Assembly (NCBI GenBank): GCA_030698565.1
Contig: JAUYJS010000005.1
Span: forward strand, 154,497-218,496
Direction of reading: 5' to 3'
Origin: Candidatus Shapirobacteria bacterium
GTDB taxonomy: Bacteria > Patescibacteriota > Microgenomatia > UBA12405
Length of the DNA stretch: 64,000 nucleotides
Each line of letters opens with the position of its first letter. Position 1 is the first letter of the stretch. The position numbers and the translations under genes are program-made. Shown piece after piece: positions 3,972-47,655 of this stretch. A model generated the notes under the pieces. It searched no databases. It was not told where the DNA came from and saw only the letters and a list, made by a program, of their open reading frames with translations.

Positions 3972-4019
3972 ATTCAATTTGAGGAATATTATCTTATTTA
4001 TTTTAATTGGAAAGACAAA

Positions 4020-4847: not shown

Positions 4848-4927
4848 AAGTTAATATATTATACAACGAAGTAATCCAGCTATTATTTACGGTTGCTTAA
4901 TAGATATAAAATAGATATAAATGAGCT

Positions 4928-6331: not shown

Positions 6332-6335
6332 TTTT

Positions 6336-7070: not shown

Positions 7071-7125
7071 TGTTTATTTAAATTCTAATATCAGCATTGT
7101 ACTACAATTACTGGTCGATTCAAAT

Positions 7126-13159: not shown

Positions 13160-13167
13160 GAATGTTA

Positions 13168-13737: not shown

Positions 13738-13774
13738 AATGTAATATAAATTACATTATATATATGAAAAAAAG

Positions 13775-14131: not shown

Positions 14132-14997
14132 GTGTCAGATTTTTTTAGAAATAACGGTATTAAAAGTAGAATACCACCCGAAATTATAAAAATCATTGGT
14201 AAGTAATTTGATTTCTTTTCGTTTTGATTTTTTATTATATTTACTGGGGTTGGGCTAATTTCAGAAACAACGGTCTCACCTAAAACATATTCGCTTGTTG
14301 GAGTAATCAAATCAGAACTCGAAGTTGCCTCTGGACTTGTTGGTGTTGGTGACGGTGATATTGGACTTAGGGTTGGTGTGGGTGTTTTTGTTGGTGTGAA
14401 TGTTGGTGACGGAACATTAGTTGGTTGTGGAGTATTAGTGGGAGTATTGGTGGGTGTGGGTGAAGGAGGCGGATTGGAAATATTTAAATAAACAGAATTA
14501 CTTAAAATAGCATTACCAGAACTGGTGTATTTGGCTGATTCAATTATTTTGCAAGTTATTTTGCAACTGCCATTAGCAGATGAGAACTTAACTCGAATAG
14601 TGATATTTTGACTAATGTTTCCAGAAGAATCTGTTGAAAATTTTGGCATATTTTGCCAACTGCCGTTATACCCATTAAGCCAATTAGAATCATTTTGTAC
14701 CTCGACGGAATAATTATCACTACCAACTCCTCCGTAACATTTAAAATAATAGTCGGTATCGTTTTTCCCATGAGAAAAAATAAAATTTAATAAAAAAGAC
14801 TGCTCCTTAAATTCATCGCTCGAGTTTAAGCTTACTACCAAGGAAACAGCTGTGCTGCCAATTGTCGGCGTTGGAGCGATTGTAATTGTGGGTGTATTTG
14901 TAGAAGTTGGAGTCAATGTTGGAATATCAGTCACAGTTTGACCAAATATTGGAACAGGAAATATTATTCGTAATAAATATAACAATAAAACAAACAC
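14128..14997 (-). CDS. Pro/Thr-rich cell-surface protein with C-terminal membrane anchor
   Basis: Signal peptide, a PT-repeat block (TPTSTNTPTITIAPTPT), Cys-containing globular core, a second PT linker (PSPTPTNTPTNTPQPTNVPSPTFTPTKTPTPT), then a TM helix and KKSDT tail. Confidence 0.4.
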   Translation of the reverse strand: MFVLLLYLLRIIFPVPIFGQTVTDIPTLTPTSTNTPTITIAPTPTIGSTAVSLVVSLNSSDEFKEQSFLLNFIFSHGKNDTDYYFKCYGGVGSDNYSVEVQNDSNWLNGYNGSWQNMPKFSTDSSGNISQNITIRVKFSSANGSCKITCKIIESAKYTSSGNAILSNSVYLNISNPPPSPTPTNTPTNTPQPTNVPSPTFTPTKTPTPTLSPISPSPTPTSPEATSSSDLITPTSEYVLGETVVSEISPTPVNIIKNQNEKKSNYLPMIFIISGGILLLIPLFLKKSDT

Positions 14998-15000
14998 AAA

Positions 15001-16443
15001 CTAGTTTAGCAAATCGATGGCGAGATTTATTTTTCTCAATGTGGCCTCTTTGCCAATGATCGGTAGACAGTCAACGACTGGTGGGGTCGAAACTGAACCG
15101 CAAATTGCCACTCTAAAAACCATAAAGAATTGCCCAGTGTTCCAGTTATTTGATTTAATTTGGTCTAACAAATTAGTTTGTAGAGTTAAAAAGTCAAAAG
15201 TTTTTAAGTTTAAAATTAATTCTTTTGTTTTATTTAACATATCATGGGCTAATTCGGGAGTAATATTTTTTTGAAGCAATAAGGTTTTATCGTAGCTTAC
15301 ATCTTCAAATAAAAATTTAGTTAAATTGGCAGCGTCCTTGAGAGTCGTGATTCTTTCCTTTATTAGGGGAATAATTTGCATTAAAATTTCAAAACTGACT
15401 TCCGGAATAAATGGCTTAAGAAGTTCGACGAGTTCACTGTCTGTTTTTTGACGAATGTAGACACCATTTATATAATCTAACTTTTTACGATCAAAAGCAG
15501 GGGCCTTTTTATTTAATTTTTCAATACTAAATTGTTTGACAAAATCGCTTAAGGTAAATATTTCTTGTTCAGTTCCCGGATTCCAACCCAAAAGCATGAG
15601 AAAATTTAAAACAGCTTCGGGTAAATAGCCGTTTTCCAGAAAAATTCGGGCGTGTACGGATCCGTGCCTTTTACTCATCTTGCCTTTGTGGTCTGGGTCA
15701 AGTAATACAGTAAGATGGGCTGTTTTTGGCATGTCCCAACCGAAATATTTGTACAAAAGTACGTGTTTTGGGGTTGATGAAAGCCATTCTTCAGCCCTTA
15801 AAACATGGGTAATATTCATTAACTGATCGTCAACCACAACAGCGAAATGATAAGTTGGGATGCCATTTGATTTAATTAAAACTTGATCATCAATGTCGTT
15901 GGTATTGAATTTTATTTTTCCCCGAATCAAATCTTCAAAAACAACTGTTTCATTTTTGGGAATTACCATCCGAATAGTGTATGAAACTTTAGAGTCTAGA
16001 TTTTTTTGAATTTCTTCTTTGGATAAATGTAGACAGTGCTGGTCGTATTTGGGTAATTTTTTTTGAGATCTTTGCTCTTCACGCAAATTATTCAGACGCT
16101 CTTGGGTACAAAAACAATAATAAGCTAGACCTTTGTTTAATAATATTTGGATGTATTTTTTATAAATATCTAGGCGTTCTGTTTGAATATAAGGACCGTA
16201 GGATCCGCCAATATCGGGGCCTTCGTCCCAAGATAGATTGTAATCTTTGATTACCTGCATGATTCTTTCCTGTGATCCTGGGATAAAACGCTTTTGGTCG
16301 GTGTCTTCAATCCTTAAAATAAATTGACCTTTATATTTTCTGGCTAAGGCATAGTCATAAAGTAGGGTTCTAAGGCCACCAATGTGAAGTTCTCCCGTAG
16401 GGCTAGGAGCTATTCGCGTACGCACAAGAGTTGGATTATCCAT
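15001..16443 (-). CDS. gltX: glutamyl-tRNA synthetase
   Basis: RIAPSPTGELHIGGLRT (HIGH) … KMSKRHG (KMSKS). Confidence 0.9.
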   Translation of the reverse strand: MDNPTLVRTRIAPSPTGELHIGGLRTLLYDYALARKYKGQFILRIEDTDQKRFIPGSQERIMQVIKDYNLSWDEGPDIGGSYGPYIQTERLDIYKKYIQILLNKGLAYYCFCTQERLNNLREEQRSQKKLPKYDQHCLHLSKEEIQKNLDSKVSYTIRMVIPKNETVVFEDLIRGKIKFNTNDIDDQVLIKSNGIPTYHFAVVVDDQLMNITHVLRAEEWLSSTPKHVLLYKYFGWDMPKTAHLTVLLDPDHKGKMSKRHGSVHARIFLENGYLPEAVLNFLMLLGWNPGTEQEIFTLSDFVKQFSIEKLNKKAPAFDRKKLDYINGVYIRQKTDSELVELLKPFIPEVSFEILMQIIPLIKERITTLKDAANLTKFLFEDVSYDKTLLLQKNITPELAHDMLNKTKELILNLKTFDFLTLQTNLLDQIKSNNWNTGQFFMVFRVAICGSVSTPPVVDCLPIIGKEATLRKINLAIDLLN

Positions 16444-16506
16444 GGCTTATTTTAGCATCATAAAAATTAAAATTTATTATGTTTGTTTTTTTATGTAAAA
16501 TAAGGT

Positions 16507-17550
16507 ATGTCTTCATTAACCCATACGGCCTACATGAGTAGAAAAATAATTAGTTTTGGTAGTGTGGGCTTAGTTGCTTTTCTAGTTCTTTGGTCAGTCT
16601 TAACAAGTGCAATAAAATCATATAATACTGCCTATCCTGCCGTTATACCACCAACTGTAAGATATGGCAGGTTACCTAAAATTGTTTTTCCAGAAAAGCA
16701 ATTTAATAAAAAGACTTTTAGTCTAGAACTACCCAACGATACTTTTCCTAAAATTAGTGAACAGGCAAAAGTATATGTGATTTACCGGCCAGATAGTCTA
16801 TTTTCTGCATTAGAAGATGATTCAAAAACTGCCGCTCAACTCGCTTTTAATAGTAAACCAATAGAAATGAGGGTTGGTTTGTATCAATTCCAAAACCCTG
16901 AATCTAGTAATACATTGATTATGAATGTTTTTGATGGCAGTTTCAAATTAGAGTACCCTTATTTAAACGATCAACTGCTTTTGACTCCAGAAAGGGTTCC
17001 AGATAAAAATGAAGCTATAGATATCGCTTCCGATTTTTTAGGATCAGGAGACAAACTTACAGATGATTTGGCTAATGGTGAAAAAAATGTAAGTTATTGG
17101 AAAATAGAAATGGGCGCTTTGAAACAAGCCAATTCCCAATCGGAGGCTCATATTGCTCGGGTGGATTTTTTCAGAAAAAATATTGATGATAACCTAAAAA
17201 TAGTAACTAATGAGCCCGAAAAAGCGGCAATATCGATATTGGTTAGTGGTTCTAGTGTTAGCGACAAAAGAATCGTTGAGGTTAATTATAAATATGCCAA
17301 CATCGACCGTGAGTCTTTTTCAACATATCCAATTAAATCTACAGAGTCTGCCTGGAAAGAGCTGCAAAGTGGTAATTATTGGCCAGTTTCTGACACTGAA
17401 ACTAGTTCTGTAGTAATACGAAGAATTTACTTGGCATATTTTGAACCAGTGACCTTAACAAATTACATGCAACCAGTCTTTGTGTTTGAAGGTGATAATA
17501 ATTTTATTGCCTATGTTCCGGCTGTGACTGATGATTATACTCAAAAATAA
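16507..17550 (+). CDS. membrane-anchored hypothetical protein
   Basis: N-terminal TM then a 300-aa soluble domain; no motif recognised. Confidence 0.35.
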   Translation: MSSLTHTAYMSRKIISFGSVGLVAFLVLWSVLTSAIKSYNTAYPAVIPPTVRYGRLPKIVFPEKQFNKKTFSLELPNDTFPKISEQAKVYVIYRPDSLFSALEDDSKTAAQLAFNSKPIEMRVGLYQFQNPESSNTLIMNVFDGSFKLEYPYLNDQLLLTPERVPDKNEAIDIASDFLGSGDKLTDDLANGEKNVSYWKIEMGALKQANSQSEAHIARVDFFRKNIDDNLKIVTNEPEKAAISILVSGSSVSDKRIVEVNYKYANIDRESFSTYPIKSTESAWKELQSGNYWPVSDTETSSVVIRRIYLAYFEPVTLTNYMQPVFVFEGDNNFIAYVPAVTDDYTQK

Positions 17551-17555
17551 AGTGA

Positions 17556-18476
17556 TTAAGGGGAATATGGTTGCCAGACAATATTTTGTTTGGCCCAGTC
17601 AATAATTTTTCTAGTATCAGAAAAACGTTCGGGACTTTGAGCGACAACACTAATTAAATAGTGACCGTCAATATTGATTAAACTCACAAAGCAGCCTCCC
17701 GCTTCTGGCGTCCAACCGGTTTTGAGACCTTCTATTTCAGAGACAACGTCTAAAAGTTCATTAGTGGAATCCAGGATTCTGATTTCTTTGTTGTCCACAT
17801 CAGCAATAGTAATTTTTTTGCTTTTAACCGTACTTTTTATAATAGGATTTTTGATGGCTATTCTAGATAATTCCGCTAAATCATAAACGGTCGAATAGTG
17901 TTCGGAGTTGTGGATACCATCAAAGTTAATAAACTTGGTACCAATTAGACCGTATTTTTGGGTCATTGAATTCATTTGACTAATAAATCCAACAATTCCT
18001 TGGGGATGGTGCTCGGCTAAATTAAACGCAGCATCGTTGGCTGAATGAACCAAAAGTGCGGAAATTAAAGATCTGACTGTTATATTTTCTCCTACTTTTA
18101 GATCTATTATTTGACCTTCAGTATAAGTTTGTTTAACAGTAACCACTTCGTCTAATGGGTAAATATTTAAAGCTGTCAGAGCAGTAGCTAATTTGGTGAT
18201 TGATGCAGGATAAACCTTGTCGTGAGGATTTTTAGACAATAAAATTGTATTTGTATCGTTGTCGATCAATATATAATTTTGCGCCTGTATTTCAGGATTT
18301 TTGTCTGGTTTTACCACCGGAATTAGAGGGTGTTGGTATTGACCTAATTTTTCCTCACTACTACCTAAAACACTTGAATTTTGTGGGTAGATTAGCCAAA
18401 AACTAGATGATGGTAATAAAAATAAATTTAAAACCATCAAAAGGGCAATGATTAAAAAATCGAGTTTAAATTTCAT
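17556..18476 (-). CDS. D-alanyl-D-alanine carboxypeptidase (peptidase S11, PBP5-like)
   Basis: ASITKLATALTAL (SxxK), HSANDAA (SxN) and signal peptide. Confidence 0.7.
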   Translation of the reverse strand: MKFKLDFLIIALLMVLNLFLLPSSSFWLIYPQNSSVLGSSEEKLGQYQHPLIPVVKPDKNPEIQAQNYILIDNDTNTILLSKNPHDKVYPASITKLATALTALNIYPLDEVVTVKQTYTEGQIIDLKVGENITVRSLISALLVHSANDAAFNLAEHHPQGIVGFISQMNSMTQKYGLIGTKFINFDGIHNSEHYSTVYDLAELSRIAIKNPIIKSTVKSKKITIADVDNKEIRILDSTNELLDVVSEIEGLKTGWTPEAGGCFVSLINIDGHYLISVVAQSPERFSDTRKIIDWAKQNIVWQPYSP

Positions 18477-35897: not shown

Positions 35898-36950
35898 TTA
35901 TTCTTTTGCTTCTTCAACTGATGCTGGAGTGGTATTTTTGGAAACTTCCCAAATCTTGGTTTTTAAATCTTTAGCGATTTCTGGATGTTCTTTGAGATAT
36001 TTTTTGGCAGCTTCCCGACCTTGAACATTTTGATCGCCAATTTTGTAAAAAGCTCCAGCCTTGGTAATTAAATTAAATTGCGTCGCAATGTCAACTAAAC
36101 CACCAAAGATAGATATACCTTCGGTGTTTAATATATCAAACTCGGCTTCTTTAAAAGGAGGTGCCACTTTGTTCTTAATAATACGAGCACGATGCTGAGA
36201 GCCAATGGATTCACCTGATGGAGTTTTTATGTTGGCAATTTTTCGTAAATCTATTCTGACAGAGGCATAAAATTTTAGAGCCAAACCACCGGGAGTGGTT
36301 TCGGGGTTACCGAACATGATACCGATCTTTTGTCTTATTTGATTGGTAAATATGACTACGGTTTTGGATTTGGAAATAGCTCCGGTAAGTTTTCTAAGAG
36401 CTTGTGACATAAGTCGAGCTTGAACACCCATCATTGAATCGCCCATCTCGCCTTCTATTTCGGCTTTTGGTACTAGTGCAGCAACTGAATCAATGACTAT
36501 GACATCAACGGCATTGGATCTGACCAATGTTTCTACTATTTCTAGGGCTTGTTCACCATTGTCTGGCTGAGAAATCAACATATTGTCTATGTCCACTCCT
36601 ACAGCAGCAGCTCGAGTTGGATCGAGAGCGTGCTCTACGTCTATAAATGCTGCAGTGCCTCCTAGTTTTTGAGCTTCAGCAATTAAATGTAAACAAACGG
36701 TGGTTTTTCCAGACGCTTCTGGTCCGAAAATTTCAGTGACACGACCTCGAGGTAAGCCGCCAATACCCAATGCCATATCTAAAGGAATACAACCTGTGGG
36801 AATGGCTTCTACTGACATGTCGGCTTTTCTTTCACCCATTTTCATAATGGCACCATCACCATAAGTTTTGGTAATTTGTTCCATGGCAATTCGGACCGCT
36901 TCGAGCTTGTTACCTTGAATATTTGTGACTGTTTTCTTTGTTTTTTTCAT
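35898..36950 (-). CDS. recA: recombinase RecA
   Basis: [16 protein letters not shown] (Walker A), [10 protein letters not shown], and L1/L2 loops. Confidence 0.95.
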
Positions 36951-37127: not shown

Positions 37128-37201
37128 CGGGGATTGGCGCAATTGGCTAGCGCGCACGTATGGGGTGCGTGAGGTTGCTGGTTCGAATCCAGTATCCCCG
37201 A
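37128..37201 (+). tRNA. tRNA-Pro (anticodon GGG)
   Basis: Hand-folded cloverleaf with a 7-bp acceptor stem CGGGGAU/AUCCCCG, giving C1:G72 and discriminator A73 as in bacterial tRNA-Pro. U8, D-arm GCGC-AAUUGGCUA-GCGC, anticodon arm CACGU-AUGGGGU-GCGUG (U33, GGG, G37), T-arm GCUGG-UUCGAAU-CCAGU. No encoded CCA. Confidence 0.8.
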
Positions 37202-38754
37202 CAAAACTTTACAACCCTACTTTTTAACATAGTAGCGAATGGCTCTTTTAACGTAAAGTTAGTTACTTTCTTTTCATCAATAGTAAAGTTCAAGAATATT
37301 TCTCGGCAAATTATATCTTTTCCTCTAGTATCTGCCGATTCAACAATAACTGCCGCATTTTTAGATAAGTTCAAGAATTGTTCTATTGTTAAGGGGTCTG
37401 TTTCTGAATTATTTAAATCATTTTCAAGTTTACTAATGTTGTTGGTTAATTGTGTTTCTTGAGCCTCCATTTTTTCTATTTCATCCGAGTTTATTTTCCA
37501 AATGGTTGAACCTATCTTATAATTGATAATTTCCAGACTTCTGTCTTTAATATCTTTTTTAATTTGTTTTAACACTCCTCTAATATTATTTAATTCTTGT
37601 TTTATTTTTTGCTTCTTAGCATCTGATAGTTTTATAAGATTATCTTGATAATTCTCATAATCTTTTTCGGTAAAATTTAACCCGGTTGTTAAAAATTCAT
37701 ATACAAAGTTAAAAATAACTTTAGAACGTATAGATTTATTTTTACGAATACATAAAGGATTATCACAACGAATATAAAGATATTTTGTTTTCTTACGGCT
37801 TCCAGAGGTAGTTGGTGCTATAACCATTCTACCTCCACAATAATGACAGTAAACCATCCCTCTTAAGGGAAAAAAGGATACTTTGTAGTTTATATTTGGT
37901 TTCATCTTCTTTAAATTAAATCTTTGTATAGCCATAAAGTCTTCTTCACTGACTGCCGGTTTAAAAATTGAAGTTAGATTCTCTCTAAGATCTACTGTAT
38001 CGTTTGCTTGTATTATTTTTCCATAATAAAAAGAGTCGTGAAACATGACACTTAATCTCTGTTTACTTATTAGTATTTCTTTTTTAGATTCATTTTTTAA
38101 TACTCGCGAATAACCATTTTTGTCTAGATATTTTTTAATTTCTTCTATTGAATCCCCCTCTTTTCTCATCTGCCAAGCTGTACAAATTAAATCAAAATTT
38201 TTTCCGTCTGGTTTATAAATTCCATTTTCATTTATATAACCATGTTTAGGAATATGGGTTCTACCGCCTTCTGAAAACTTATGTCTAGTTCCCCGTGTTA
38301 CTTTTTGCGATAGATCATCTGAATACTGTTTTGATAACACAAACGCCATTCCTAAAAGCATTTTCCCGTTGGCATCTTTTGTAAAATAATGGGTTTTAAA
38401 TTTTAGGTCTTTAATTATTGCTTCATCAATAAGGTTAATTATTTCTCCCCCTTCTAACATGTTACGAGCCAATCTGTCAGGGTTCCAAGAAATAATTCCA
38501 TCATAAAGACCTTTTTTAATATCCTTAATCATTTGGTTATACAATGGTCTTTGACCGGGTTTCTTAGCTGATTGTTTTTCTGAAATAGTTTCTACAATAT
38601 TTATATTTAAATCTGAGGCTAGTCGCCTACAATCTAATATTTGATCATTGATAGAACGTATTTGTCTTGATTCATCAGTTGTGGATTTACGAGCGTAAAG
38701 AACATATTTTAATTTCTTGATATCTAATTCTTGTTCTTCTAAAATAGAATTCAT
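37147..38754 (-). CDS. large serine recombinase (resolvase/invertase catalytic domain + recombinase domain + zinc ribbon)
   Basis: YVLYARKSTTDESRQIRSINDQ (catalytic Ser motif), …CHYCGGRM…RCDNPLC (Zn ribbon), C-terminal coiled coil. The last ~18 codons are encoded by the complement of the tRNA-Pro T-arm/acceptor. Confidence 0.8.
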   Translation of the reverse strand: MNSILEEQELDIKKLKYVLYARKSTTDESRQIRSINDQILDCRRLASDLNINIVETISEKQSAKKPGQRPLYNQMIKDIKKGLYDGIISWNPDRLARNMLEGGEIINLIDEAIIKDLKFKTHYFTKDANGKMLLGMAFVLSKQYSDDLSQKVTRGTRHKFSEGGRTHIPKHGYINENGIYKPDGKNFDLICTAWQMRKEGDSIEEIKKYLDKNGYSRVLKNESKKEILISKQRLSVMFHDSFYYGKIIQANDTVDLRENLTSIFKPAVSEEDFMAIQRFNLKKMKPNINYKVSFFPLRGMVYCHYCGGRMVIAPTTSGSRKKTKYLYIRCDNPLCIRKNKSIRSKVIFNFVYEFLTTGLNFTEKDYENYQDNLIKLSDAKKQKIKQELNNIRGVLKQIKKDIKDRSLEIINYKIGSTIWKINSDEIEKMEAQETQLTNNISKLENDLNNSETDPLTIEQFLNLSKNAAVIVESADTRGKDIICREIFLNFTIDEKKVTNFTLKEPFATMLKSRVVKFCRGYWIRTSNLTHPIRAR

Positions 38755-38759
38755 TTGTA

Positions 38760-39140
38760 TTATTGATTAATTGTTTTATACCATCCTCTCGCAAGACGTT
38801 TATTTATTTCTATAAGTTGTTCTTTTACTAATTTATCATCTGTTTCATCTTTTAGGTCTTTAGGCTCTCTTTTACCAAATTCGTCTGTATATACACGTTC
38901 TAAATACCAGGCAGCTGCCTGCCAAGACTTGTTTGAAGCTTCAAAAATTCTACTAATTAATAATAATTTCCTTTCCATTTCTGCCTTTTTTATGGTGTCG
39001 GAAAACTCCGGTTTTTCTTTTTGCCATTCGTAAAAAGTACTTTCTGATATTCCCATACAAAAAGAGGCGTCTCTATTTGACAATCCTTTTTTAATCAGTT
39101 CACAAATTTTTTCTAATAAATCTTTTGAGTATTTAGCCAC
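38760..39140 (-). CDS. phage terminase small-subunit-like HTH protein
   Basis: ICELIKKGLSNRDASFCMGISESTFYEWQKEKPEFSDTIKKAE resembles the TerS N-terminal HTH (Y-E-W-x-K-x-x-P-E-F-x-x-x-I). Confidence 0.4.
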   Translation of the reverse strand: MAKYSKDLLEKICELIKKGLSNRDASFCMGISESTFYEWQKEKPEFSDTIKKAEMERKLLLISRIFEASNKSWQAAAWYLERVYTDEFGKREPKDLKDETDDKLVKEQLIEINKRLARGWYKTINQ

Positions 39141-39243
39141 ACACTATTTTACATTTATTCTACCGATTAATCATTTATTATCAGTAAAAATGCTAATGAC
39201 ATTAGCCATTTCTAGTTTGAATTATTTTTAACTATTATTCTGA

Positions 39244-39594
39244 TTACAATTTAATACCAGTTATTTGAGGTTTGTTGATTTCATCATTCATAATAGCAAC
39301 CCACATACACCGACAACCATCGTGAATAGGTGGTTTGTATTTATAATAAGCTGGGTCGTCTTTAGCAATTACACTTCCGTCTAATTTTGCACAAGTAGGA
39401 CATGTTTTATCATCTAAAATAGCAGAATACTCAAAAGCATAAATATCCTTGGCGTATTCAGTTAGTAGTATATCTATATTTTCACTTGAGGCATGTATAT
39501 TTGCAGATTCAACATTATTTGACTTGTTATTTACTTGTTTTGAAGTAGAGAATATTTTTATAAATATATCTATTAAGTTGTTAATTATCATCAC
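39244..39594 (-). CDS. phage Mu-F/SPP1-gp7-like head-morphogenesis C-terminal domain fragment
   Basis: …CPTCAKLDGSVI…PPIHDGCRCMWV is the C-x-x-C…H-x-x-C-R-C signature of the Phage_Mu_F family; only 116 aa (truncated). Confidence 0.45.
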   Translation of the reverse strand: MMIINNLIDIFIKIFSTSKQVNNKSNNVESANIHASSENIDILLTEYAKDIYAFEYSAILDDKTCPTCAKLDGSVIAKDDPAYYKYKPPIHDGCRCMWVAIMNDEINKPQITGIKL

Positions 39595-39606
39595 ATTTAT
39601 TAGCTA

Positions 39607-39813
39607 TTATTTTCTAAGCGAATTTATTATTTCATTATCAACATTACTAAGGGTTTCCATTGCATTGGTAATTTGGTCAATTAACTGTTTATTGGCGTAG
39701 TTTAAATACAAATTTGTTTTATTTAAATTAAACAAAAATATTACTGAAATAATTAGTCCAACAATAGACAATCTTAAGATCCACAATTCTGTTTTAGATA
39801 TATTAGTTTTCAT
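39607..39813 (-). CDS. small single-TM protein (hypothetical)
   Basis: 68 aa; TM WILRLSIVGLIISVIFLF. Confidence 0.3.
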   Translation of the reverse strand: MKTNISKTELWILRLSIVGLIISVIFLFNLNKTNLYLNYANKQLIDQITNAMETLSNVDNEIINSLRK

Positions 39814-39849
39814 ATTTTAAGTTAATTATTACCAAATAATAACATAACT

Positions 39850-39863
39850 TTCCATATATGGAA
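39850..39863. promoter_or_regulatory. perfect 14-bp palindrome TTCCATATATGGAA in divergent promoter region (candidate operator)
   Basis: Lies between the divergent minus-strand module (start 39813) and the XRE gene (start 39904). A half-site-like TATATGG recurs 9 bp downstream (39870-39876). Confidence 0.35.
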
Positions 39864-39903
39864 TGGTGTTATATGGCAAGTTCCCCAATAATGAGCTTGT
39901 TGT

Positions 39904-40140
39904 ATGCAAGGCTATAAAAAAGACAACCCATATCAAAGAGAACGTAAGGTCTTAGGACAAACGATTAAAAGATTAAGGGAGAATGTTGGAATAACTCAAG
40001 AAGATTTAGCGGACAAGGCACATGTTAACGTATCTTATCTAGCAAAGATTGAGACAGGTTATGTAAATACTACCGTTAGATATTTGATTAAGATTGCTAG
40101 AGGGTTAGGAGTAAGTGTAAAAGAATTGTTTGAATTTTAA
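39904..40140 (+). CDS. XRE-family helix-turn-helix transcriptional regulator
   Basis: LGQTIKRLRENVGITQEDLADKAHVNVSYLAKIETG; 78 aa, cI/Cro-like size. Confidence 0.75.
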   Translation: MQGYKKDNPYQRERKVLGQTIKRLRENVGITQEDLADKAHVNVSYLAKIETGYVNTTVRYLIKIARGLGVSVKELFEF

Positions 40141-40151
40141 CTCAAAAAAAA

Positions 40152-41762
40152 CTAATTATCGGATTGGGGATCTTTCCAATTATCTGGAATCTTGATAGTT
40201 GCTTTTATTCCTGCGTGGTTTTCAAGTAAATAAAGTAAATTGGTTCCACTAAGTAATTCCAATGGTTTACCTGCAGCAAAATCAAAAGCAGCCTTACCAT
40301 AGCCACTTGTAGTAACTAATATACCTTTAGATGCTCCTTCATTTTGGACCGTACCAAATAAATCCCTTACAGCACTAACACCGACTGTATTTTTGTATCG
40401 TTTTGCTTGAATAACGACCTTACCACCAAATATGGGGCGAGGATCATAAGCGACACAATCAACCCCTCCGTCACGTGATGCTTGGGTTAAACGTGTTTCA
40501 AGACCCATCTTCTCAAAAAGATTAGTTATAAGTGACTCAAACTCACCAGGAGTTAAATCCATTAAATTTGGTCTTTGATCTAATTCAGATAAAACATCTG
40601 ATGCTTCAATAAATCTAGAATCAACCATGTTGAATTCCAACACTGGTCTTACAGGGGCTAATTCTGATGGATTTTTTGAAAAAGATGCGTCAAGTGTTTT
40701 TAAACAAGAAATTGGATCAATTCGTGAAAGATCAATATCTTTAAAAACAGAGTCTGTTGTTCTAATTGTAATAATACAAGGCCGAATATCTTTACCCGTT
40801 CCGCTATTTATTGAATTAACATATCCGTTAAAAACCAAGCTTTCAACTAAATTTTCTTTATCTATAGAAAAAATTATATTTAAAATACGAAGCGATTCTT
40901 GTGCAATAAAAGACGTGTATAAATTTTTACGAAAAGTAATTGATGCTGGAATAGATAAAATTTTGTCTGATGATTTTATATATTTACAAGAGGACTCAAG
41001 AGGAATAATTTCAAATGGTGGTAAATCATATTCTATAACGAGTTGTTTTGACTCTGGTATATATGCGAGTTTTGTATTGGATGGAAATTCAGTGGGAAGT
41101 TCAAAAAATTCTAATGCCCAAGAAAAAAATTCTACTACTGCTTGTGGTTGCTTTTTTGTAAAATTATCTTTTAACTTAAAAATCTCATTATTTTTTTCTT
41201 TTGTCTCTTTAATTATTTTTTCTACCTCTTTATTATAATTTTTTTTAGCTTCTAATAACATCTCTTTCCTCTTTTTTTCTTGTATTTTATACAATTCAAC
41301 GTCTTTATTATAATTAATTTCAGCTTCTTCAGTTCTTTTTTTATGTATATTTTTTACTCCTGGAATTAATTTTAACAATCCAAGTTCTTTAGGAAGATAA
41401 TCCTCAAGTTCAGGCTCATTTTCAGTAATATTTAATTTTCCGGGATTAAATGGTTTTATGTCAGGTTCTTTTATAAATTTATCAAGTGAAAAATTATATG
41501 ATTTTAAAAGTGAGTTTTTAAGTCTATCGGATAATTGCTTTATTTGATTAGACAAATCAACTTTTAAAGCTTCTGTTTGTCCTAGTTGAGATTGTAAATA
41601 TTGGCGAGCTTTTTCTTTTTCGTCCAGAATTTTCGCACGTAACATTTGTTTGCGATGTGCTTCTTCCTCTCTTAGGACACGTTTTTGATAGGCGAGATTT
41701 AATCTTGCTTGTCTATTTGCCTCACGTGCAGACGCACGTATCATTTTTACTAAAAGTCCCAT
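40152..41762 (-). CDS. coiled-coil protein with C-terminal Mrr-type (PD-(D/E)xK) restriction endonuclease domain
   Basis: C-terminal LTPGEFESLITNLFEKMGLETRLTQASRDGGVDCVAYD…GGKVVIQAKRYKNTVGVSAVRDLFG…GILVTTSGYGKAAFDFA matches the Mrr_cat pattern (G-x-DGG-x-D … Q-x-K-R-Y). N-terminal ~170 aa strongly coiled-coil (Lys/Glu heptads), plus a ~200-aa middle domain. Confidence 0.65.
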   Translation of the reverse strand: MGLLVKMIRASAREANRQARLNLAYQKRVLREEEAHRKQMLRAKILDEKEKARQYLQSQLGQTEALKVDLSNQIKQLSDRLKNSLLKSYNFSLDKFIKEPDIKPFNPGKLNITENEPELEDYLPKELGLLKLIPGVKNIHKKRTEEAEINYNKDVELYKIQEKKRKEMLLEAKKNYNKEVEKIIKETKEKNNEIFKLKDNFTKKQPQAVVEFFSWALEFFELPTEFPSNTKLAYIPESKQLVIEYDLPPFEIIPLESSCKYIKSSDKILSIPASITFRKNLYTSFIAQESLRILNIIFSIDKENLVESLVFNGYVNSINSGTGKDIRPCIITIRTTDSVFKDIDLSRIDPISCLKTLDASFSKNPSELAPVRPVLEFNMVDSRFIEASDVLSELDQRPNLMDLTPGEFESLITNLFEKMGLETRLTQASRDGGVDCVAYDPRPIFGGKVVIQAKRYKNTVGVSAVRDLFGTVQNEGASKGILVTTSGYGKAAFDFAAGKPLELLSGTNLLYLLENHAGIKATIKIPDNWKDPQSDN

Positions 41763-41786
41763 AATTTAAGTCAAATAAGTTACAAT

Positions 41787-42365
41787 TTATTTATACCATT
41801 TATCAAAACGTTCTGGAATAACTTTAATTATATATCCGCTTTTCGTTAAAAGAGTATCAAAACCCTCTCCACGGAGTGTATTAAAAATACTAATATGTTT
41901 TGTTCCGCAGATAAAAACGACATTTTTATCTTTTATTTTATCTACAATTTTTTTTAACCAAATTTTTTCTCTTTTTTCATACTCTTTCCACATTTCACAA
42001 TCAATTATCATTCTTTGTTCTGGAGTTAATAGACCTATCCAACCATGTTCTTTTTTTAAATCATTCTCATCTTTAATGTTTTCGTTTATTCTTTCATGCA
42101 ATTCTGGATCACAATAACTATGGTCTATATTATTTTTTAATTCTTTTTTCATTTTATCAACCAAACGTTTTATTGTAGAGCTTTTGACTTTCCATATTTT
42201 ATTAACATCAACACTCCATTCTTCAAACACAAATCTAATATCAAAATCTAAAATTAAATTTTCTAATGTATTTAAAAACTGTTTTGATAAATTACAATCT
42301 TTATTTAACTGAATATCATGGTTAATGCCAATTAAGTAGACCACTTCTTTAGACACTTGGTTCAT
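41787..42365 (-). CDS. hypothetical protein (middle gene of the Mrr-nuclease operon)
   Basis: ATG at 42365 (MNQVSKEV…) preferred; the track 'M' at 42413 is a TTG. Two G-x-x-H-like segments (LIGINHD, FICGTKHISIF); no confident family. Confidence 0.35.
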   Translation of the reverse strand: MNQVSKEVVYLIGINHDIQLNKDCNLSKQFLNTLENLILDFDIRFVFEEWSVDVNKIWKVKSSTIKRLVDKMKKELKNNIDHSYCDPELHERINENIKDENDLKKEHGWIGLLTPEQRMIIDCEMWKEYEKREKIWLKKIVDKIKDKNVVFICGTKHISIFNTLRGEGFDTLLTKSGYIIKVIPERFDKWYK

Positions 42366-43194
42366 ACAACTTCTTTTTAAAAAAATTATGATATTTTGCC
42401 AATGAACAATCAATTATTTTATATTGTTTAAGTTTACTTGCAAAATAAAGATAAAAAGTGAAGGAACTCTTTAAAACGAGGTCAATATTATTAGGATTTT
42501 TATCAAGTATCAACATGTCTCCTTTATCATTATTAATCCAAAAGTGCTGAATACCTCTCATTGAAAGATGAACATATTCCGAAAGGTGCTTATAAGCTAA
42601 TAGATAGGTATGTTCAACTCCTCCAGACTTATCTTTTTGTTTTGTTTTTAATTTTTGGTCTATTCCAATAGCCCTATCTAAAAGACTTCCCCATTCCTTA
42701 TCAAATTCCTTCTTTTTCTTGAACGAGATGCCCAGTTTTGATTTGTAGTATGCAAGTTCATCAGAAGGCACTTTAGACATATCTCTTAATTTTTGCCTAG
42801 TGAATATTTTTTTTCTTTGTTTCGGATACCTTGTGTAGTAATCTTGTAATAATTGGACTAGCGATTTTCTATAATAACTATCTTCAATTGCAAAAAGATA
42901 CAATAATCTGTCATTGGGATGACCTAGAACATACATTGAGTTAATCCATGCTTCCACAATGCTTCTTAAGATAACTATTGCTGCCTCTGGTCTACTTTGT
43001 TTACATAGTTCAAATATCGCTTCTGTATATGAGTTAACAGCGGCAAACATTGATACTAATAATATCTGTTTTAAATTTAATTTATTTTTATAAATAGGTT
43101 TTCTTGTAAATTCATCTTTCGTATAATTAACCATTTCCGATAGCTTTTCTAGTATTTCCTGATTTTTGGGTTTTATTTTTGGTAAAATATCCAT
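42349..43194 (-). CDS. hypothetical α-helical protein (first gene of the Mrr-nuclease operon)
   Basis: 281 aa with SD-like AAAGG upstream; 17-nt overlap with the next gene; no motif recognised. Confidence 0.35.
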   Translation of the reverse strand: MDILPKIKPKNQEILEKLSEMVNYTKDEFTRKPIYKNKLNLKQILLVSMFAAVNSYTEAIFELCKQSRPEAAIVILRSIVEAWINSMYVLGHPNDRLLYLFAIEDSYYRKSLVQLLQDYYTRYPKQRKKIFTRQKLRDMSKVPSDELAYYKSKLGISFKKKKEFDKEWGSLLDRAIGIDQKLKTKQKDKSGGVEHTYLLAYKHLSEYVHLSMRGIQHFWINNDKGDMLILDKNPNNIDLVLKSSFTFYLYFASKLKQYKIIDCSLAKYHNFFKKKLYEPSV

Positions 43195-43893
43195 CTGTTG
43201 TTTTACCTTTTATAACACAAACCTCATGTACATATATTAGATCTTAATACTTCTACTAATTTACTTATTAAGTTCAATAATACTTTTCTTAATTAGTTTT
43301 CGGATCATCATCTAACTTAATACGTTTTCCATCTGAGTCTTTTATGCTTGTTGCATTGGCTTTTGCTTCTTCTGAATTTACATCAACAGATTTCATTGTA
43401 TTAATTAGCAGATCAAGTGATGTTGGTTGTGTAGATGTGTTTTTTTGATTTTCGTCAATACTCATAAGGAGAATTATAGCTATTTTGTGGGTATTTTAAA
43501 AGTAAATATTCAGATAGTTTTTCTTTGTTGTTGTTATAATCCCAATTATTAACAAGCGATTCAAATAGGGGTTTAAAAAGTTCAATGCTTATCGCTTCAT
43601 CCCGACAATACCTTTTTTCTCTTCCCATGCCTCAATTTGCTCATCAGCAAATTTGTCAACTTGGGTGACGTAAACATTGCTATCTATCACTTTAGTGTTT
43701 TTATCTCGCCATTACTGTTTTTGTACGTTTAAGGCGACTTGGTGACATAATGTCTCACAGACAAACTGCCCTATTATCGGCTATGTTCTGTAATTTGGAT
43801 TATGGGAAGTTGAGTCACCAAACTTACATCAAAAAGGTGACGTTTGTATACCTAAAAAAACCTGAAATAATTTAGCTTACCGAAAAAAATAAT

Positions 43894-44157
43894 TTATTTT
43901 TTTGGTTGTATAGCCACTTCCTGCTCATTAAAGATAGCCTTCACTGGTTTACCAGTTTCTGCTGTAATTTTTTGCATCGTATCGAGTAAACCGTCTCTTG
44001 AGCAACCAGGCAAAACTTCTACATCAACCTGTTCATTTCCAACACTTATTCCGCCAATAAAAACCTGTACTTTATGACCCTTAACTTTCTTTAAACCACG
44101 CATCGAATACTTTTCAGTTAAGGTCTGGGGGGCTAGGTTTCGATTAACTTCTTTCAT
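43894..44157 (-). CDS. hypothetical 87-aa protein
   Basis: ORF only; sits just inside the putative island end. Confidence 0.25.
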   Translation of the reverse strand: MKEVNRNLAPQTLTEKYSMRGLKKVKGHKVQVFIGGISVGNEQVDVEVLPGCSRDGLLDTMQKITAETGKPVKAIFNEQEVAIQPKK

Positions 44158-44283
44158 AATTTTATCTTCTAAGTTTAGAATTTCATCTATATTGTAACAT
44201 ACATAGTTGTTCCTAAAATTTATAGATATTTGTCATTTTTTTGGATTTAAAATCGCGCGCGCAAAGAATAATTTTCAATCGAG

Positions 44284-44324
44284 CCCCGCTTTTTACGCCG
44301 TGCCCCCGCCCACGGCGTGCGGGG
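44284..44324. repeat. GC-rich compound hairpin (CCCCGC-uuuuu-ACGCCGUG-loop-CACGGCGU-GCGGGG)
   Basis: 14 G:C-rich pairs in a 41-nt span inside an AT-rich spacer between the island end and ppa. No clean U-tract on either strand. Confidence 0.4.
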
Positions 44325-44448
44325 AAGTGTTATAATTTCATGAATACAGTTCGAATTTTTCAGTACAATGCCGACTTAGTTTAAACGCATTCACATAATC
44401 GCTTGTTCGAAGAAATGAAAGTAAGAGTTTGTGGATCTAATAAAAAGC

Positions 44449-44991
44449 TTAACGCTTTAATTCTGAAATAGCTTCGCCTTCTTCTTGATAAGTCTTGGAA
44501 GACTCTTCAATCATGCTGTATGCGTCTTCTAAACTTCTCCAACCTTTGATAACAACGTCTTTTTCTTCAAGTCTTTTATATTCACTAAAAAAATGAACGA
44601 TTGATTTTAAAAGGTGGGGTGAGACATCGTTTACATCTTTGATATGAGCGAAGTTTGGATTCTTGGCTGGGACAGCTAAAACTTTTTCATCATCACCCTT
44701 TTCGTCGGCCATAATAAAAAGACCGATGGGGCGAGCTTCCATAAGACAACCTGGGAAAACAGGAGAGTCGGTAATAACCATTATATCCATATGATCACCG
44801 TCGGCGGCTCTAGTTTCTGGAATAAAACCATAATCAACCGGATAAAAGAATGGTGAATGAAGTACTCGGTCGAGTTTTATGACATTTAATTCTTCATCAA
44901 ATTCGTATTTGTTATGGGAACCTTGGGGAATTTCTATGATAGCGTTGACTATCTGAGGAGATTTTTTGTTATTTGGCACTAGTTGAATCAT
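44449..44991 (-). CDS. ppa: inorganic pyrophosphatase (family I)
   Basis: IEIPQGSHNKYEFD…DGDHMDIMV…AKNPNF. Confidence 0.9.
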   Translation of the reverse strand: MIQLVPNNKKSPQIVNAIIEIPQGSHNKYEFDEELNVIKLDRVLHSPFFYPVDYGFIPETRAADGDHMDIMVITDSPVFPGCLMEARPIGLFIMADEKGDDEKVLAVPAKNPNFAHIKDVNDVSPHLLKSIVHFFSEYKRLEEKDVVIKGWRSLEDAYSMIEESSKTYQEEGEAISELKR

Positions 44992-45177
44992 AATGATATG
45001 ATACTAGCATATGGAAAGTAGAAATAAAAGCGAAAATATTAAAGACAATTTGATTTTTAAAATTGAAACAGAGGATACGGATAAGATCCTAAATAAGAGA
45101 ATTAAAATTATAAAACGAGCCTATGCAAGTTTGCGTAGATCGGCTTGGGAAAAATTGAAAGGTAAGTTGGGTGAGTG

Positions 45178-46290
45178 CTAATGGTCGAGTAGATTAATAA
45201 AAAGTAAAAATAGAAGTATTAGTATCACAACGATTATAATTCCGATTGTAAATTTTGATATGGGCTTTTTAGTTTGTTTTATATTATTTTCAGCTAGATA
45301 CTTTAGATTTTGATAAATAGAATAAATAAAAACACTTCCGATTGATCCCCAAATAGTAGCTACTATAAAATTGGTTCCAAAAATAATTATGCCCGATAAA
45401 TTGAATAATTTAATTAAGAAATTTGTTAAAAATGAAATTATAAAAAACAAGACGCCCATTAAAAAGAATCTACTAAATAAATCTGGCCACCAGCCACCAA
45501 CATAACCTTTGCTATCAATTATTGAATCGATAATATTATTATTCTTCTTTTCCACTATTGTATACGGAGCCATTAAATACCAAAAAGAGAACATTATAGA
45601 TGGTATAAAAAGCAATCCAAAAACAATGATGGGGGTAAACAGTGCGCTTATATTGACAGATGTTCTAAGACTAAAGTAAGTTAGATACGCAACGATTAAA
45701 AGGACCGTTGCAAGCAACACATTGACCACTGCTGAAAGTAAAGCTATTTTAGGAATATTTTTTAATATATTTCGTAAGGTTTCCTTTAAATCCAACTTGT
45801 CACTTGACCTTTTCAATATTAAAAATACAGTTATGTTCTTTAAGTTTAAAAATATATTTAATAGTATTATGTTAATAACGCCAAAAACTATTAATATTGG
45901 CGGAAGTGATCGGGTTGTATAACTCTTGACCAGTTCCATAAATGCTGTCCTGGGTATGAAAAGTAATATGATAGACAATAATCCTTCGTACAATAGCGAA
46001 AAAAATAATATTGACAGAGACAAACTTATAAAGTTACTTTTGTATAAATTAATAGATCTTTTTAAAAGGTCGCCAAAACTTAGAATTCCAGTATATATTT
46101 CCTGTTCTGATGAATTTTCTAAACCAATAGAATGAACTTCCGGGACAACATTTACTCTCAACTTTTCGAACGCTTCGTTTATGTCCTGTTCGGACCAACC
46201 AGCCTGAAGCAAATTGATTTTTATTGTTTCCTCAGATAACTTTTTATCAAGACAAATCTTAACGTAATCAAGTAATTGTTGTGTAACCAT
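45178..46290 (-). CDS. polytopic membrane protein with N-terminal soluble helical domain (hypothetical)
   Basis: ~70-aa N-terminal soluble region then six or more TM helices. Confidence 0.35.
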   Translation of the reverse strand: MVTQQLLDYVKICLDKKLSEETIKINLLQAGWSEQDINEAFEKLRVNVVPEVHSIGLENSSEQEIYTGILSFGDLLKRSINLYKSNFISLSLSILFFSLLYEGLLSIILLFIPRTAFMELVKSYTTRSLPPILIVFGVINIILLNIFLNLKNITVFLILKRSSDKLDLKETLRNILKNIPKIALLSAVVNVLLATVLLIVAYLTYFSLRTSVNISALFTPIIVFGLLFIPSIMFSFWYLMAPYTIVEKKNNNIIDSIIDSKGYVGGWWPDLFSRFFLMGVLFFIISFLTNFLIKLFNLSGIIIFGTNFIVATIWGSIGSVFIYSIYQNLKYLAENNIKQTKKPISKFTIGIIIVVILILLFLLFINLLDH

Positions 46291-46353
46291 ACCCTAAGTT
46301 TATATTTATTTTATATAAAATAAAGGTATGAAAAAGTAGATATTTTACTAAGG

Positions 46354-47121
46354 CTAAAAACTATTGATTACTTTTTCTTTTTCAATATTATTTTCAAAAA
46401 ATTGTTTTACGTTTTTATAAAGAACGAACGAGTAGATTAATATCAGTGGATTGTACAAAATTTGAAAAAGCCAAGAGGTTACTGTAAATATTGGTTGATG
46501 TTGCTGCCTAAAGAAGAACAAGACTAGTGCGTTTAAAATAGGCAGTGTCCAAATTCTGGCGAAAATTGAGAAAAAAGCGCTTTTGACATATTTTTTGCTG
46601 ATATTAATTGCTTGCAATATACTTGTATTTTGGTCAATTAAAATATAGGGGGCAAAATAAAACCACGTACTTAAAATAGCTAACGGAAAGACAAATAATA
46701 AGAAACCTCCTAAATTAATAGCAATCAAAAGGAGTGATAAAAACATATAAGGCAACGATCTTTTGTGAGCCATTCTGAGCATTTCATTAAAATCGATTTT
46801 ATTCGAATTACTTTTAGAAATTAAAATAGTAGCTATTCTGTAAGTAGATAAATACAAATACATGATTAATATTAATAAAAAGACTAATAGATAAATTATA
46901 ATAGTTGACCAAATGTTAAAACCAATTAATTTGACAATAGGCCGACCGTAAATCTCTATAAGATCTGGTCCGGAAATATAAAATATATGACCCCACAGAG
47001 AAAATTTAAGTATATTAAAAAGATTTTTTTTGTAAATAAATAAAGATTTTTTAATTAAATCGTTTATTTCTAGTAAAGCGCTAGTATCCTTTTTATTTTG
47101 TAAATTAAAATTATTTATCAC
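46354..47121 (-). CDS. polytopic membrane protein (hypothetical; possible paralogue of preceding gene)
   Basis: 255 aa, multiple TM helices, similar composition to its neighbour. Confidence 0.35.
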   Translation of the reverse strand: MINNFNLQNKKDTSALLEINDLIKKSLFIYKKNLFNILKFSLWGHIFYISGPDLIEIYGRPIVKLIGFNIWSTIIIYLLVFLLILIMYLYLSTYRIATILISKSNSNKIDFNEMLRMAHKRSLPYMFLSLLLIAINLGGFLLFVFPLAILSTWFYFAPYILIDQNTSILQAINISKKYVKSAFFSIFARIWTLPILNALVLFFFRQQHQPIFTVTSWLFQILYNPLILIYSFVLYKNVKQFFENNIEKEKVINSF

Positions 47122-47195
47122 GAGTAAGTTTTGCGGTTATATTCATTACTTTATAATTTATTTCTTATAAGAATTTATATTATTTTTACATAAAA

Positions 47196-47227
47196 GTAAA
47201 CAAAAAGACTCCCGGATGGGAGTCTTT
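47196..47227 (-). terminator. rho-independent terminator ending the ribosomal super-operon
   Basis: Minus strand AAAGACUCCC-aucc-GGGAGUCUUUUUGUUU. Confidence 0.65.
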
Positions 47228-47247
47228 GAAATTCCAATAAAAATAGA

Positions 47248-47655
47248 TTAACGCTTTGGAGATTGCTTTTGGCGTCGGGCTTTACCACCAGTACCAACCA
47301 TTCTTCTTTCTCTAACTCTAGAATCTACAGTCAAAAGCCCGGCAGCACGAAGAAGTGGTCCGAAATCGGCTTCATCCTTCTTTAAAGCTCGGGCAACAGC
47401 CAAAACTAAAGCTTCAAGCTGGCCATTTTTACCACCACCACTGATTTTAGCAGTGAAGTGATATTTATCCATGGTTTTTGTAGTAGAAAAAGGTTTATCT
47501 AAATTAATTTTAAGGGTAGAACCGGGAAAATACTTATCAGCAACTAGATCGTTGACCAGTGATTCGCCTTTACCTTTGTATAATTTAATAGTGGCAACAG
47601 CAGATTTGCGTCTACCAATGGCATAAATGTAAATATTTGGTGTTTTTTTAACCAT
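47248..47655 (-). CDS. rpsI: 30S ribosomal protein S9
   Basis: GRRKSAVATIKL…GGKARRQKQSPKR. Confidence 0.9.
   Translation of the reverse strand: MVKKTPNIYIYAIGRRKSAVATIKLYKGKGESLVNDLVADKYFPGSTLKINLDKPFSTTKTMDKYHFTAKISGGGKNGQLEALVLAVARALKKDEADFGPLLRAAGLLTVDSRVRERRMVGTGGKARRQKQSPKR

Follow-up and report, generated by a model that had tools for sequence, protein, structure and literature searches.

The 64,000-nt stretch analyzed here (the window; contig JAUYJS010000005.1 of a Candidatus Shapirobacteria bacterium) carries, next to the only tRNA gene that ARAGORN called in it, tRNA-Pro(GGG), what is very likely a 6.4 kb integrative element of a Patescibacteria-wide family, whose large serine recombinase (LSR) would have the attachment site attP inside its own coding sequence. 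As delimited from the sequence, the element occupies window positions 37197-43608 (6,404 bp). A first-pass annotation of this DNA had recognized accessory cargo between recA-recX and ppa, inserted at the 3' end of tRNA-Pro; our analysis confirmed both flanks and the left end, and placed the right end elsewhere. The coordinates of all features are collected in Table 1.

The open reading frame (ORF) of the LSR converges with tRNA-Pro and overlaps the 3' part of the tRNA gene by 56 nt, a layout shared by the family of homologues; the serine recombinase gene noticed earlier at this position thus overlaps the tRNA rather than merely abutting it. Residues 18-164 form the PF00239 catalytic domain (E=4.6e-21), in which S24 (YARKSTTDE, the nucleophilic serine) was invariant in 23 aligned homologues, and residues 296-354 matched the zinc-ribbon domain PF13408 (E=3e-6, above the curated cut-off), with the cysteines C303, C306, C330 and C335 invariant in the alignment of homologues. 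The PF07508 Recombinase domain, recorded for many homologues, was below threshold in the window LSR. The best PHROG match was the integrase family phrog_95 (9.8e-54); a PHROG DNA invertase also matched (2.9e-22). By its domains the enzyme belongs to the large serine recombinases.

Codons 1-519 of the LSR (38754 down to 37198) belong to the element, and the final 16 codons are host tRNA antisense. The last 18 residues, CRGYWIRTSNLTHPIRAR, are the tRNA read backwards, and the C-terminus runs ..F-C-R-G-Y-W-I-R-T-S-N-L-T-H-P-I-R-A-R. The antisense translation of tRNA-Pro in a related genome that has no recombinase at this place (locus L172) was 95% identical to LSR residues 517-535, from which it follows that this C-terminus is encoded by the host. 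A protein search returned 982 LSR homologues at 44-62% identity, nearly all unnamed or from Patescibacteria, and nearly all of these finish in ..S/C-R-G followed by residues typical of an antisense T-arm and acceptor. R519 was invariant in the alignment, and homology between homologues stopped at this residue.

The same convergent arrangement recurs throughout the family. We fetched 87 recombinase loci (L-numbers denote loci), which left 70 after dereplication, and in 41 of these 70 the end of the ORF overlaps a convergent tRNA-Pro with anticodon TGG (24 loci), GGG (9) or CGG (8). The overlap is with tRNA-Leu in one further dereplicated locus and with tRNA-Val in another, always convergently, and in at least 4 of the loci where no tRNA was called the ORF terminates on the 3' end of tmRNA. 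The recombinases ending on tmRNA (ssrA) are those of L113, L138, L141 and L154, with 3' ends at about 11528-11568 (2067 in L141) and the same convergent overlap; the tRNA-Leu(GAG) targets were seen in L144 and L145, and the tRNA-Val(GAC) target in L153. Target switching within this recombinase family could be traced.

At the other end of the element we found what appears to be the missing part of the recombinase gene. The ORF finder lists here a 57-aa ORF (43455-43628), whose first 7 codons lie in the host flank; homology of this ORF to its relatives mostly begins at residues 6-9 (Y-C-R). The core is read in frame as Cys-Arg both by the recombinase (..K-F-C-R-G-Y-W) and by the 57-aa ORF (..R-Y-C-R-D-E-A). 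Recombinase residues 1-519, continued by residues 10-57 of the small ORF, make up a 567-aa reconstruction, the junction of which aligns without gaps to contiguous recombinases from other loci, with IEL, the W of NWD and YN..YEY-stop in common. Such contiguous forms, in which a recombinase continues into the same tail, were found in L102 (..FGRVGASYIEPL..NWDYTSF..YEY), L130, L133 and, as protein P0110, in L171, together with a remnant in L099. On this sequence evidence we conclude that ORF 43455-43628 is the detached 3' end of the LSR gene. The DNA of L102 (contiguous) and L103 (split) is 94% identical up to GGTCGAG and unrelated beyond it; a search by DNA similarity to L102 for the far junction of L103 did not find it, and L103 seems to be rearranged. 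Counterparts of the 57-aa ORF and of the adjoining 58-aa ORF were present in about 34 of the 87 loci, without exception on the strand of the recombinase and 0.1-6 kb upstream. The frame of the detached tail is still open in about 30 loci and runs to the conserved stop behind YEY or a variant of it, which suggests that selection still acts on the tail and that the tail is put to use at some stage in the life of the elements. When the 57-aa tail itself served as the query of an exhaustive search, only 8 matches came back, mostly ORFs of 45-70 aa; the query is too short for counting contiguous forms.

Two of the loci, L171 (10001-15125) and L134 (738-8729), contain tandem arrays made up of a contiguous recombinase with tail, a few small genes, and a split recombinase abutting tRNA-Pro. 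The internal junction of these arrays is attP-like, with the tail of one element in frame with the recombinase of the next. An occupied site of this kind offers only half an attB to a second element.

The boundaries of the element were located from its attachment sites. The sequence CCCGACAA is present both at 37197-37204 and at 43601-43608, which gives the length of 6,404 bp. Comparison of attL and attR in 11 other loci reduced the minimal common core to CGAC, the shared stretch being 4-8 nt over the 12 loci, and the crossover is predicted to fall inside the 8-nt core of the window. When the junctions of the 11 loci were aligned in the orientation of the tRNA, they showed a conserved arm, ..AGTTCAAT-N5-TCGCTTC-N2-CTCGAC(A/T), past which the flanks were unrelated between loci, and the tRNA-side junction read ..GGTTCAA.TCC..CCCCGAC followed by the recombinase 3' end. 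An nhmmer profile of the right-junction arm, built from 12 loci with the window excluded, matched window positions 43567-43607 (37.3 bits, E=1.4e-10); this was the only significant match in the 64 kb, the next having E=0.28. The distance from tail junction to tRNA is 3.3-7.5 kb in the family, consistent with the 6.4 kb seen here. The right boundary had earlier been set at 44349-44375, and the junction at 43601-43608 lies about 770 nt to the left of it. A displaced copy of the tRNA 3' segment had been assumed to mark that end; instead, the far end carries the half-site of the element that would encode the recombinase C-terminus, and since family junctions share only 4-8 nt, no displaced tRNA segment is expected. 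The distal ends of the window element, L084, L087, L089 and eight more loci were searched for a displaced piece of tRNA, and only short cores were recovered; generic repeat finding across 36.9-46.5 kb gave only AT-rich chance pairs.

The locus is polymorphic for the element. An empty site in relatives had been named as the check for an island, and L173 provides one: ppa, 300 nt, tRNA-Pro(GGG) and recA-recX-RNase Y-HU follow one another, with rplM-rpsI-.. before ppa, and the tRNA-Pro 3' end faces ppa in the same orientation as in the window. Identity between L173 and the window is 84% for RecA, 69% for ppa and 79% for RNase Y, and no recombinase, tail, arm or island gene was found at the L173 locus. 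In L172 (RecA 85%), 6.3 kb of different genes, without a recombinase, occupy the same place. The nearest RecA among species-representative genomes is 82% identical to that of the window. tRNA-Pro(GGG) stands beside recA in L001, L002, L004-L006, L008, L009, L016, L023, L172 and L173; this adjacency is kept in Microgenomates with or without the recombinase, which identifies the recombinase as the mobile partner.

We propose the following mechanism. attP would lie inside the LSR gene, 48 codons before its stop, and the free form of the element would encode the 567-aa protein. A crossover of attP with the terminal bases of tRNA-Pro (core CGAC, in the window extended to the 8 nt given above) would insert the element just after the tRNA, with the tRNA body left intact, and would split the recombinase gene into 519 codons beside the tRNA, running on into its antisense strand to give the 535-aa form, and the last 48 codons, which together with the next small gene would be left 6.4 kb away at the other junction. 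The C-terminal 48 residues would in this way be exchanged for residues encoded by tRNA antisense. The left arm of attP would consist of the codons for the first tail residues, with the motif GTTCAAT-N5-TCGCTTC-N2-CTCGAC resembling the T-arm and acceptor end of a tRNA, and the right arm would be the sequence coding for the conserved ..KEPFATLLK.R....SR. In the predicted attP junction ..TTCATCCCGACA is joined to AAACTTTACAACC.., and in the predicted attB junction ..AGTATCCCCGACA is joined to ATACCTTTTTTC..; that the half-sites of attP and attB look alike would be in keeping with their recognition by a single protein. In the circular form, the gene for the 58-aa protein would sit directly downstream of the recombinase gene. 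This protein (43289-43465) had no Pfam, PHROG or PADLOC match, and may be a candidate directionality factor, its size being typical of some such factors. A circular intermediate, the crossover dinucleotide, activity of the truncated protein and movement from cell to cell are the parts of this scheme that we infer from the comparisons above.

A further proposal, which we put forward tentatively and consider rather doubtful, is that the C-terminal swap is a built-in state switch. The 567-aa enzyme ending in NWD...YEY would then integrate the element, and the tail-less form would differ in activity or directionality, perhaps together with the 58-aa factor. This could make the system the first serine-recombinase counterpart of those of SSV1 and Mx8 (see below), and the family a main route of gene flux, including that of defence genes, at tRNA-Pro and tmRNA in the candidate phyla radiation (CPR).

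Several observations weigh against an element of this kind that moves by way of an attP within its own gene. The contiguous recombinases of known context lie either in tandem arrays (L171, L134) or in a chromosome-like contig (L133), and the attP form is accordingly deduced from array junctions and from the reconstruction. Terminal overlaps expected of a free circular form were seen in none of 15 short contigs. A same-strain contig from the Logan assembly of SRR13727534 crosses attR at 43608 unbroken, and so gives no sign of an excised subpopulation. In the search for a same-species genome free of the island, exact-protein look-ups and ppa homologues returned only the same strain (Logan SRR13727534 and a 232 kb NCBI contig), the next ppa being 71% identical. 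A scan of IMG/VR viral contigs with the recombinase alignment found a single distant match (23% identity), which offers no evidence that the family is phage-borne. In L156, a perfect 47-nt direct repeat (4637-4683 and 8152-8198) flanks a decayed element whose recombinase has in-frame stops; within the repeat, 36 nt downstream of the tRNA, the motif ATCCCCGAC occurs for a second time, which does not fit a scheme with one core. Finally, the recombinases of L103, L104, L105, L115 and L098 end on a degenerate arm, GGTTCTAACTTTTTCGTAAATCTCGAC, and not on a tRNA. As separate observations, the Logan assembly has a break within the tRNA, between a contig end at 37153 and the start of the following contig at 37175, and we attribute this break to tRNA sequence shared with other community members and not to excision because attR is crossed unbroken; the degenerate arm of the L103-type loci is preceded by a GC-rich hairpin (e.g. 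L103 11507-11560); and in L103 an intact tRNA-Pro lies 3.3 kb beyond that arm.

The other explanations that we considered concern mainly the stretch between the element and ppa. It spans 43609-44448 and contains an 87-aa ORF (43894-44157), a GC-rich hairpin (44280-44330) and the site at 44349-44375. The 87-aa ORF is the sole ORF there and an ORFan, with no homologue but itself, and when 43600-47300 was searched by tblastn with all island proteins and with 120 homologues of the recombinase, no remnants were detected in 43609-44448. Weak tblastn matches at 45250-45540 fall inside a membrane-protein gene and were judged spurious. In the window, the hairpin at 44280-44330 is followed by GTTCGAATTTTTCAGTACAATGCCGAC, an arrangement similar to the hairpin and degenerate arm of the L103-type loci; it could be a relic or a secondary site.

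The explanation that survives best, unlikely as we consider it to be, is tandem accretion, in which 43609-44375 would be a decayed older element of the same family, 44349-44375 its degenerate arm, and the current element an insertion inside the older footprint. Arrays do occur in the family (L171, L134), as do recombinase remnants beside intact elements (L099, L100, L092), and the L103-type loci just mentioned have a comparable hairpin and arm. The site at 44349-44375 also has the exact 27-nt GTTC..CGAC spacing, and its reading in the frame of the tail, R-HCTEKFELYS-stop, offers F-E-L-Y against the family's I-E-L-L/F when read by eye. However, the right-junction arm profile did not find 44349-44375 at E<=100, the ungapped identity to the arm consensus is about 13/26 by hand count, the GTTC..CGAC pattern was defined after the data had been seen, and 43609-44349 has no homology to the tail, the 58-aa gene, the recombinase or the cargo.

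Far less probable is the model of the first-pass annotation, a 7.2 kb immobilized island (37128-44375) whose right end would be a displaced tRNA segment in the form of a mutated old attR. The string on which it was founded, GTTCGAAT...CAGTA...CCGAC, is present at 44349-44375, and its GTTC-N19-CGAC shares both length (27 nt) and strand with the real arm at 43580-43606; moreover, 3.55 occurrences of GTTC-N18-24-CGAC would be expected in the window, and 12 are found. However, only the 8-mer GTTCGAAT is an exact match, and the claimed echo of the tRNA does not rise above chance: in the alignment check that had been suggested, 4-18% of 66-nt windows in the same 64 kb scored at least as well as the site against the tRNA 3' part, over three scoring schemes. 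A profile of 41 tRNA-Pro 3' halves did not find 44349-44375 at E<=50, nor did the arm profile find it. The conserved terminal modules of the element stop at 43608, and the stretch beyond contains, as described, neither recombinase remnant nor island-gene homology and an ORFan as its sole ORF. Nor is there support for the supposed old age and immobility of the element, its recombinase ORF, 48-codon tail and junction arm all being intact and matching the family consensus.

We give equally little credence to the view that a resident invertase or resolvase lies beside tRNA-Pro by chance, with read-through producing the ORF overlap and 43455-43628 being an unrelated gene fused in a few lineages: the orientation of tRNA-Pro relative to recA does vary across Microgenomates, as an invertase could produce, and a DNA invertase is among the PHROG matches, but the best PHROG match is an integrase, the convergent overlap recurs in unrelated contexts at three tRNA-Pro isoacceptors, tRNA-Leu, tRNA-Val and tmRNA, the locus, conserved in other respects, occurs both with and without the recombinase, and tail homology mostly starts at the shared core, with the sequence upstream of it unrelated between loci.

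Under the reading that we prefer, a 6.4 kb element ending at 43608, the cargo can be described as follows. The earlier identification of a TerS-like helix-turn-helix (HTH) protein, a Mu-F fragment, an XRE regulator and an Mrr-type nuclease was upheld by Pfam, PADLOC and PHROG. The main cargo is a type IV restriction endonuclease, whose match to mREase_IV is full-length (positions 27-529 of 544); the XRE regulator encoded divergently from it resembles the control proteins of restriction systems and has homologues 62-76% identical in L118, L124 and L094. With this enzyme and this regulator as cargo, the element acts as a small defence islet. The TerS-like gene begins 5 nt upstream of the recombinase gene and has homologues in the elements of L124 and L170. 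It is probably co-transcribed with the recombinase; its product is a candidate for a regulator, a directionality factor or a packaging protein, and one might speculate that it hints at packaging by a helper phage. The Mu-F-like fragment retains only the last ~52 residues of its domain. Pfam and PHROG scans of the element found no capsid, portal, large terminase or replication gene, just the TerS-like HTH protein and the Mu-F fragment. The recombinase ORF, the 48-codon tail, the junction arm and the restriction gene are intact, the first three of these fit the family consensus, and the Mu-F piece is the sole fragment; the element thus looks intact and not decayed. The tract that had been called gene-poor and decayed holds two conserved family modules at 43289-43628, and the part of it beyond 43608 lies outside the element. 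GC content is slightly lower in the element than in its flanks (0.25-0.31 vs 0.35-0.43).

Table 1. Window coordinates of the element, its attachment sites and the flanking host genes
Feature	Position	Strand	Evidence and remarks
recA	35898-36950	-	left of tRNA-Pro; recX also left, -
tRNA-Pro(GGG)	37128..37202	+	ARAGORN; Rfam tRNA 56.7 bits; host gene, predicted integration target and attB left arm
LSR, integrated form, 535 aa	37147..38754	-	Pfam Resolvase 4.6e-21, Zn_ribbon_recom 3e-6
attL core CCCGACAA	37197..37204	+	last tRNA bases + 2 nt; identical to attR core
TerS-like HTH protein, 126 aa	38760..39140	-	Pfam Sf6_terminase 6e-8; phrog_4102 small terminase 6.9e-25
Mu-F-like minor head protein fragment	39244..39594	-	Pfam Phage_Mu_F 1.3e-10, profile 59-110/112; PHROG head-morphogenesis families
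68-aa ORF, hydrophobic-looking cargo	39607..39813	-	ORF list; no Pfam, PHROG or PADLOC match
XRE-family HTH regulator	39904..40140	+	HTH_3 4.6e-17; PADLOC Control_protein 2e-13; divergent from nuclease gene
Type IV (methyl-directed) restriction endonuclease, 536 aa, main cargo	40152..41762	-	PADLOC mREase_IV 3.4e-86; Pfam Mrr_cat 7.4e-31
208-aa ORF, cargo	41787..42413	-	ORF list; sub-threshold ISP_coupler match only
DUF5677 protein, 281 aa, cargo	42349..43194	-	Pfam DUF5677 1e-20
Conserved 58-aa protein	43289..43465	-	tblastn matches in ~25 recombinase loci, same strand, just after tail
Detached recombinase 3' end (C-R + 48 residues, DEAISIELFKPLFESLVNNWD...YEY, stop)	43455..43607	-	homologous tails, junction alignment
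attR	43567..43608	+	P half-site of the element, AGGGGTTTAAAAAGTTCAATGCTTATCGCTTCATCCCGACA; its last 8 nt (43601-43608) are the core CCCGACAA; host flank from ~43609
ppa	44449-44991	-	right of tRNA-Pro and island

The window enzyme shares its resolvase, recombinase and zinc-ribbon domains and its size (~500-570 aa) with the LSRs of phiC31, Bxb1, TP901-1, A118 and SPbeta (SprA), and the phiC31-type systems likewise have a very short junction core without long direct repeats. Several of these systems use a small partner protein to control the direction of recombination. To our knowledge, phiC31-type LSRs have an attP beyond the limits of the integrase ORF and an attB that is usually located within a protein-coding gene. 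Here, in contrast, attP would lie in the integrase ORF, attB would be the 3' end of a tRNA or tmRNA gene, and 48 C-terminal residues would be swapped; the elements are also tiny (3.3-7.5 kb), without virion or conjugation genes, and nearly absent from IMG/VR. In the intP/intX system of myxophage Mx8, attP is reportedly located in the 3' part of int, and the prophage integrase is said to acquire a different C-terminus; that integrase is reportedly of the tyrosine type and belongs to a full-sized temperate phage. The Int protein of SSV1 (Fuselloviridae), a tyrosine recombinase of an archaeal virus, also has attP within the integrase gene, which is split upon integration into a tRNA gene (PMC8371274). 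SSV1 Int and Mx8 IntP being tyrosine recombinases, their likeness to the window LSR is one of mechanism and not of family: the 3' part of the integrase gene appears to be separated and replaced here as well, and the tyrosine recombinase fold is not present. Compared with SSV1, moreover, the recombinase is a serine one and bacterial, and the split leaves 92% of the protein and all recognized domains in one piece.

Islands of the type found by Islander usually have tyrosine integrases and split and regenerate the tRNA, with a displaced fragment marking the end (PMC4383910). The window element resembles them in its site-specific insertion at the 3' side of a tRNA or tmRNA gene, the adjacent integrase gene, the accessory cargo and the empty site in a relative. 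It differs from those islands in its serine recombinase and in having just a 4-8 nt core in place of a displaced tRNA fragment. Searches for tRNA fragments that follow this logic will misplace the ends of such islands, as in the first-pass annotation. Neither this family nor any serine integrase whose own gene contains attP was described in what a literature search of incomplete coverage turned up.

The comparisons above point to a family, widespread in the CPR, of small elements that carry a serine integrase whose gene splits itself. CPR bacteria (Patescibacteria) have tiny genomes in which, as far as we know, few mobile elements have been described, and one recombinase family, with ~1000 detected proteins and hundreds of metagenome loci, accounts for small islands at tRNA-Pro and tmRNA in this group, with anti-phage cargo carried at least by the window element. 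Two features that serine integrases do not commonly show would be united in the family, targeting of a tRNA and an attachment site in the integrase's own gene that remodels the enzyme, and the family would offer a natural test of the role of the extreme C-terminus of LSRs. The target, the tRNA-Pro 3' end, is short and near-universal, and the predicted attP and attB are explicit, so that the enzymes could be put to the test as integration tools, also for organisms for which genetic tools do not yet exist.

The surroundings of the element are variable as well. In L004-L006, which are more distant Microgenomates, rpsI directly adjoins tRNA-Pro-recA, and across Microgenomates the interval from rpsI to tRNA-Pro ranges from 120 nt to >10 kb, with a gene set that differs per lineage; the whole rpsI-tRNA-Pro interval is a variable region. 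Between ppa and rpsI (44992-47247), the window has two genes without a Pfam match (370 aa, hydrophobic-looking, and 255 aa), in place of which L172 and L173 have BacA, a PolB-exonuclease/RNase H-like gene and a PF1765-like gene; this ppa-rpsI part is a further variable segment next to the island. With respect to recA, tRNA-Pro(GGG) is oriented in one way in L001, L002, L009 and L016 and in the other in L004-L006, L008, L023, L172, L173 and the window. The tRNA-Pro/recA locus is a rearrangement hotspot, possibly driven by these recombinases. In scans for Rfam families and terminators, 36.9-45.1 kb yielded nothing but the tRNA, and the hairpin at 44280-44330 was not called as a terminator.

Two other loci had unusual contexts. 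In L133 (WNFY01001849.1) the recombinase homologue is unsplit, 48% identical to the window LSR and without a tRNA within 10 kb; its neighbours (3185-8308 and 11213-18162) include NB-ARC and NACHT STAND-type genes, transposases, a RecD2 helicase and two DNA methylases, and this locus may represent a different host or a different integration state. In L087 (11215-11640), a small GIY-YIG ORF beside tRNA-Pro(TGG) is followed by a tRNA-like sequence, uncalled by ARAGORN, of which the first 19 nt and the last ~11 nt match the tRNA and the middle is divergent; it may be a disrupted or intron-bearing duplicate.

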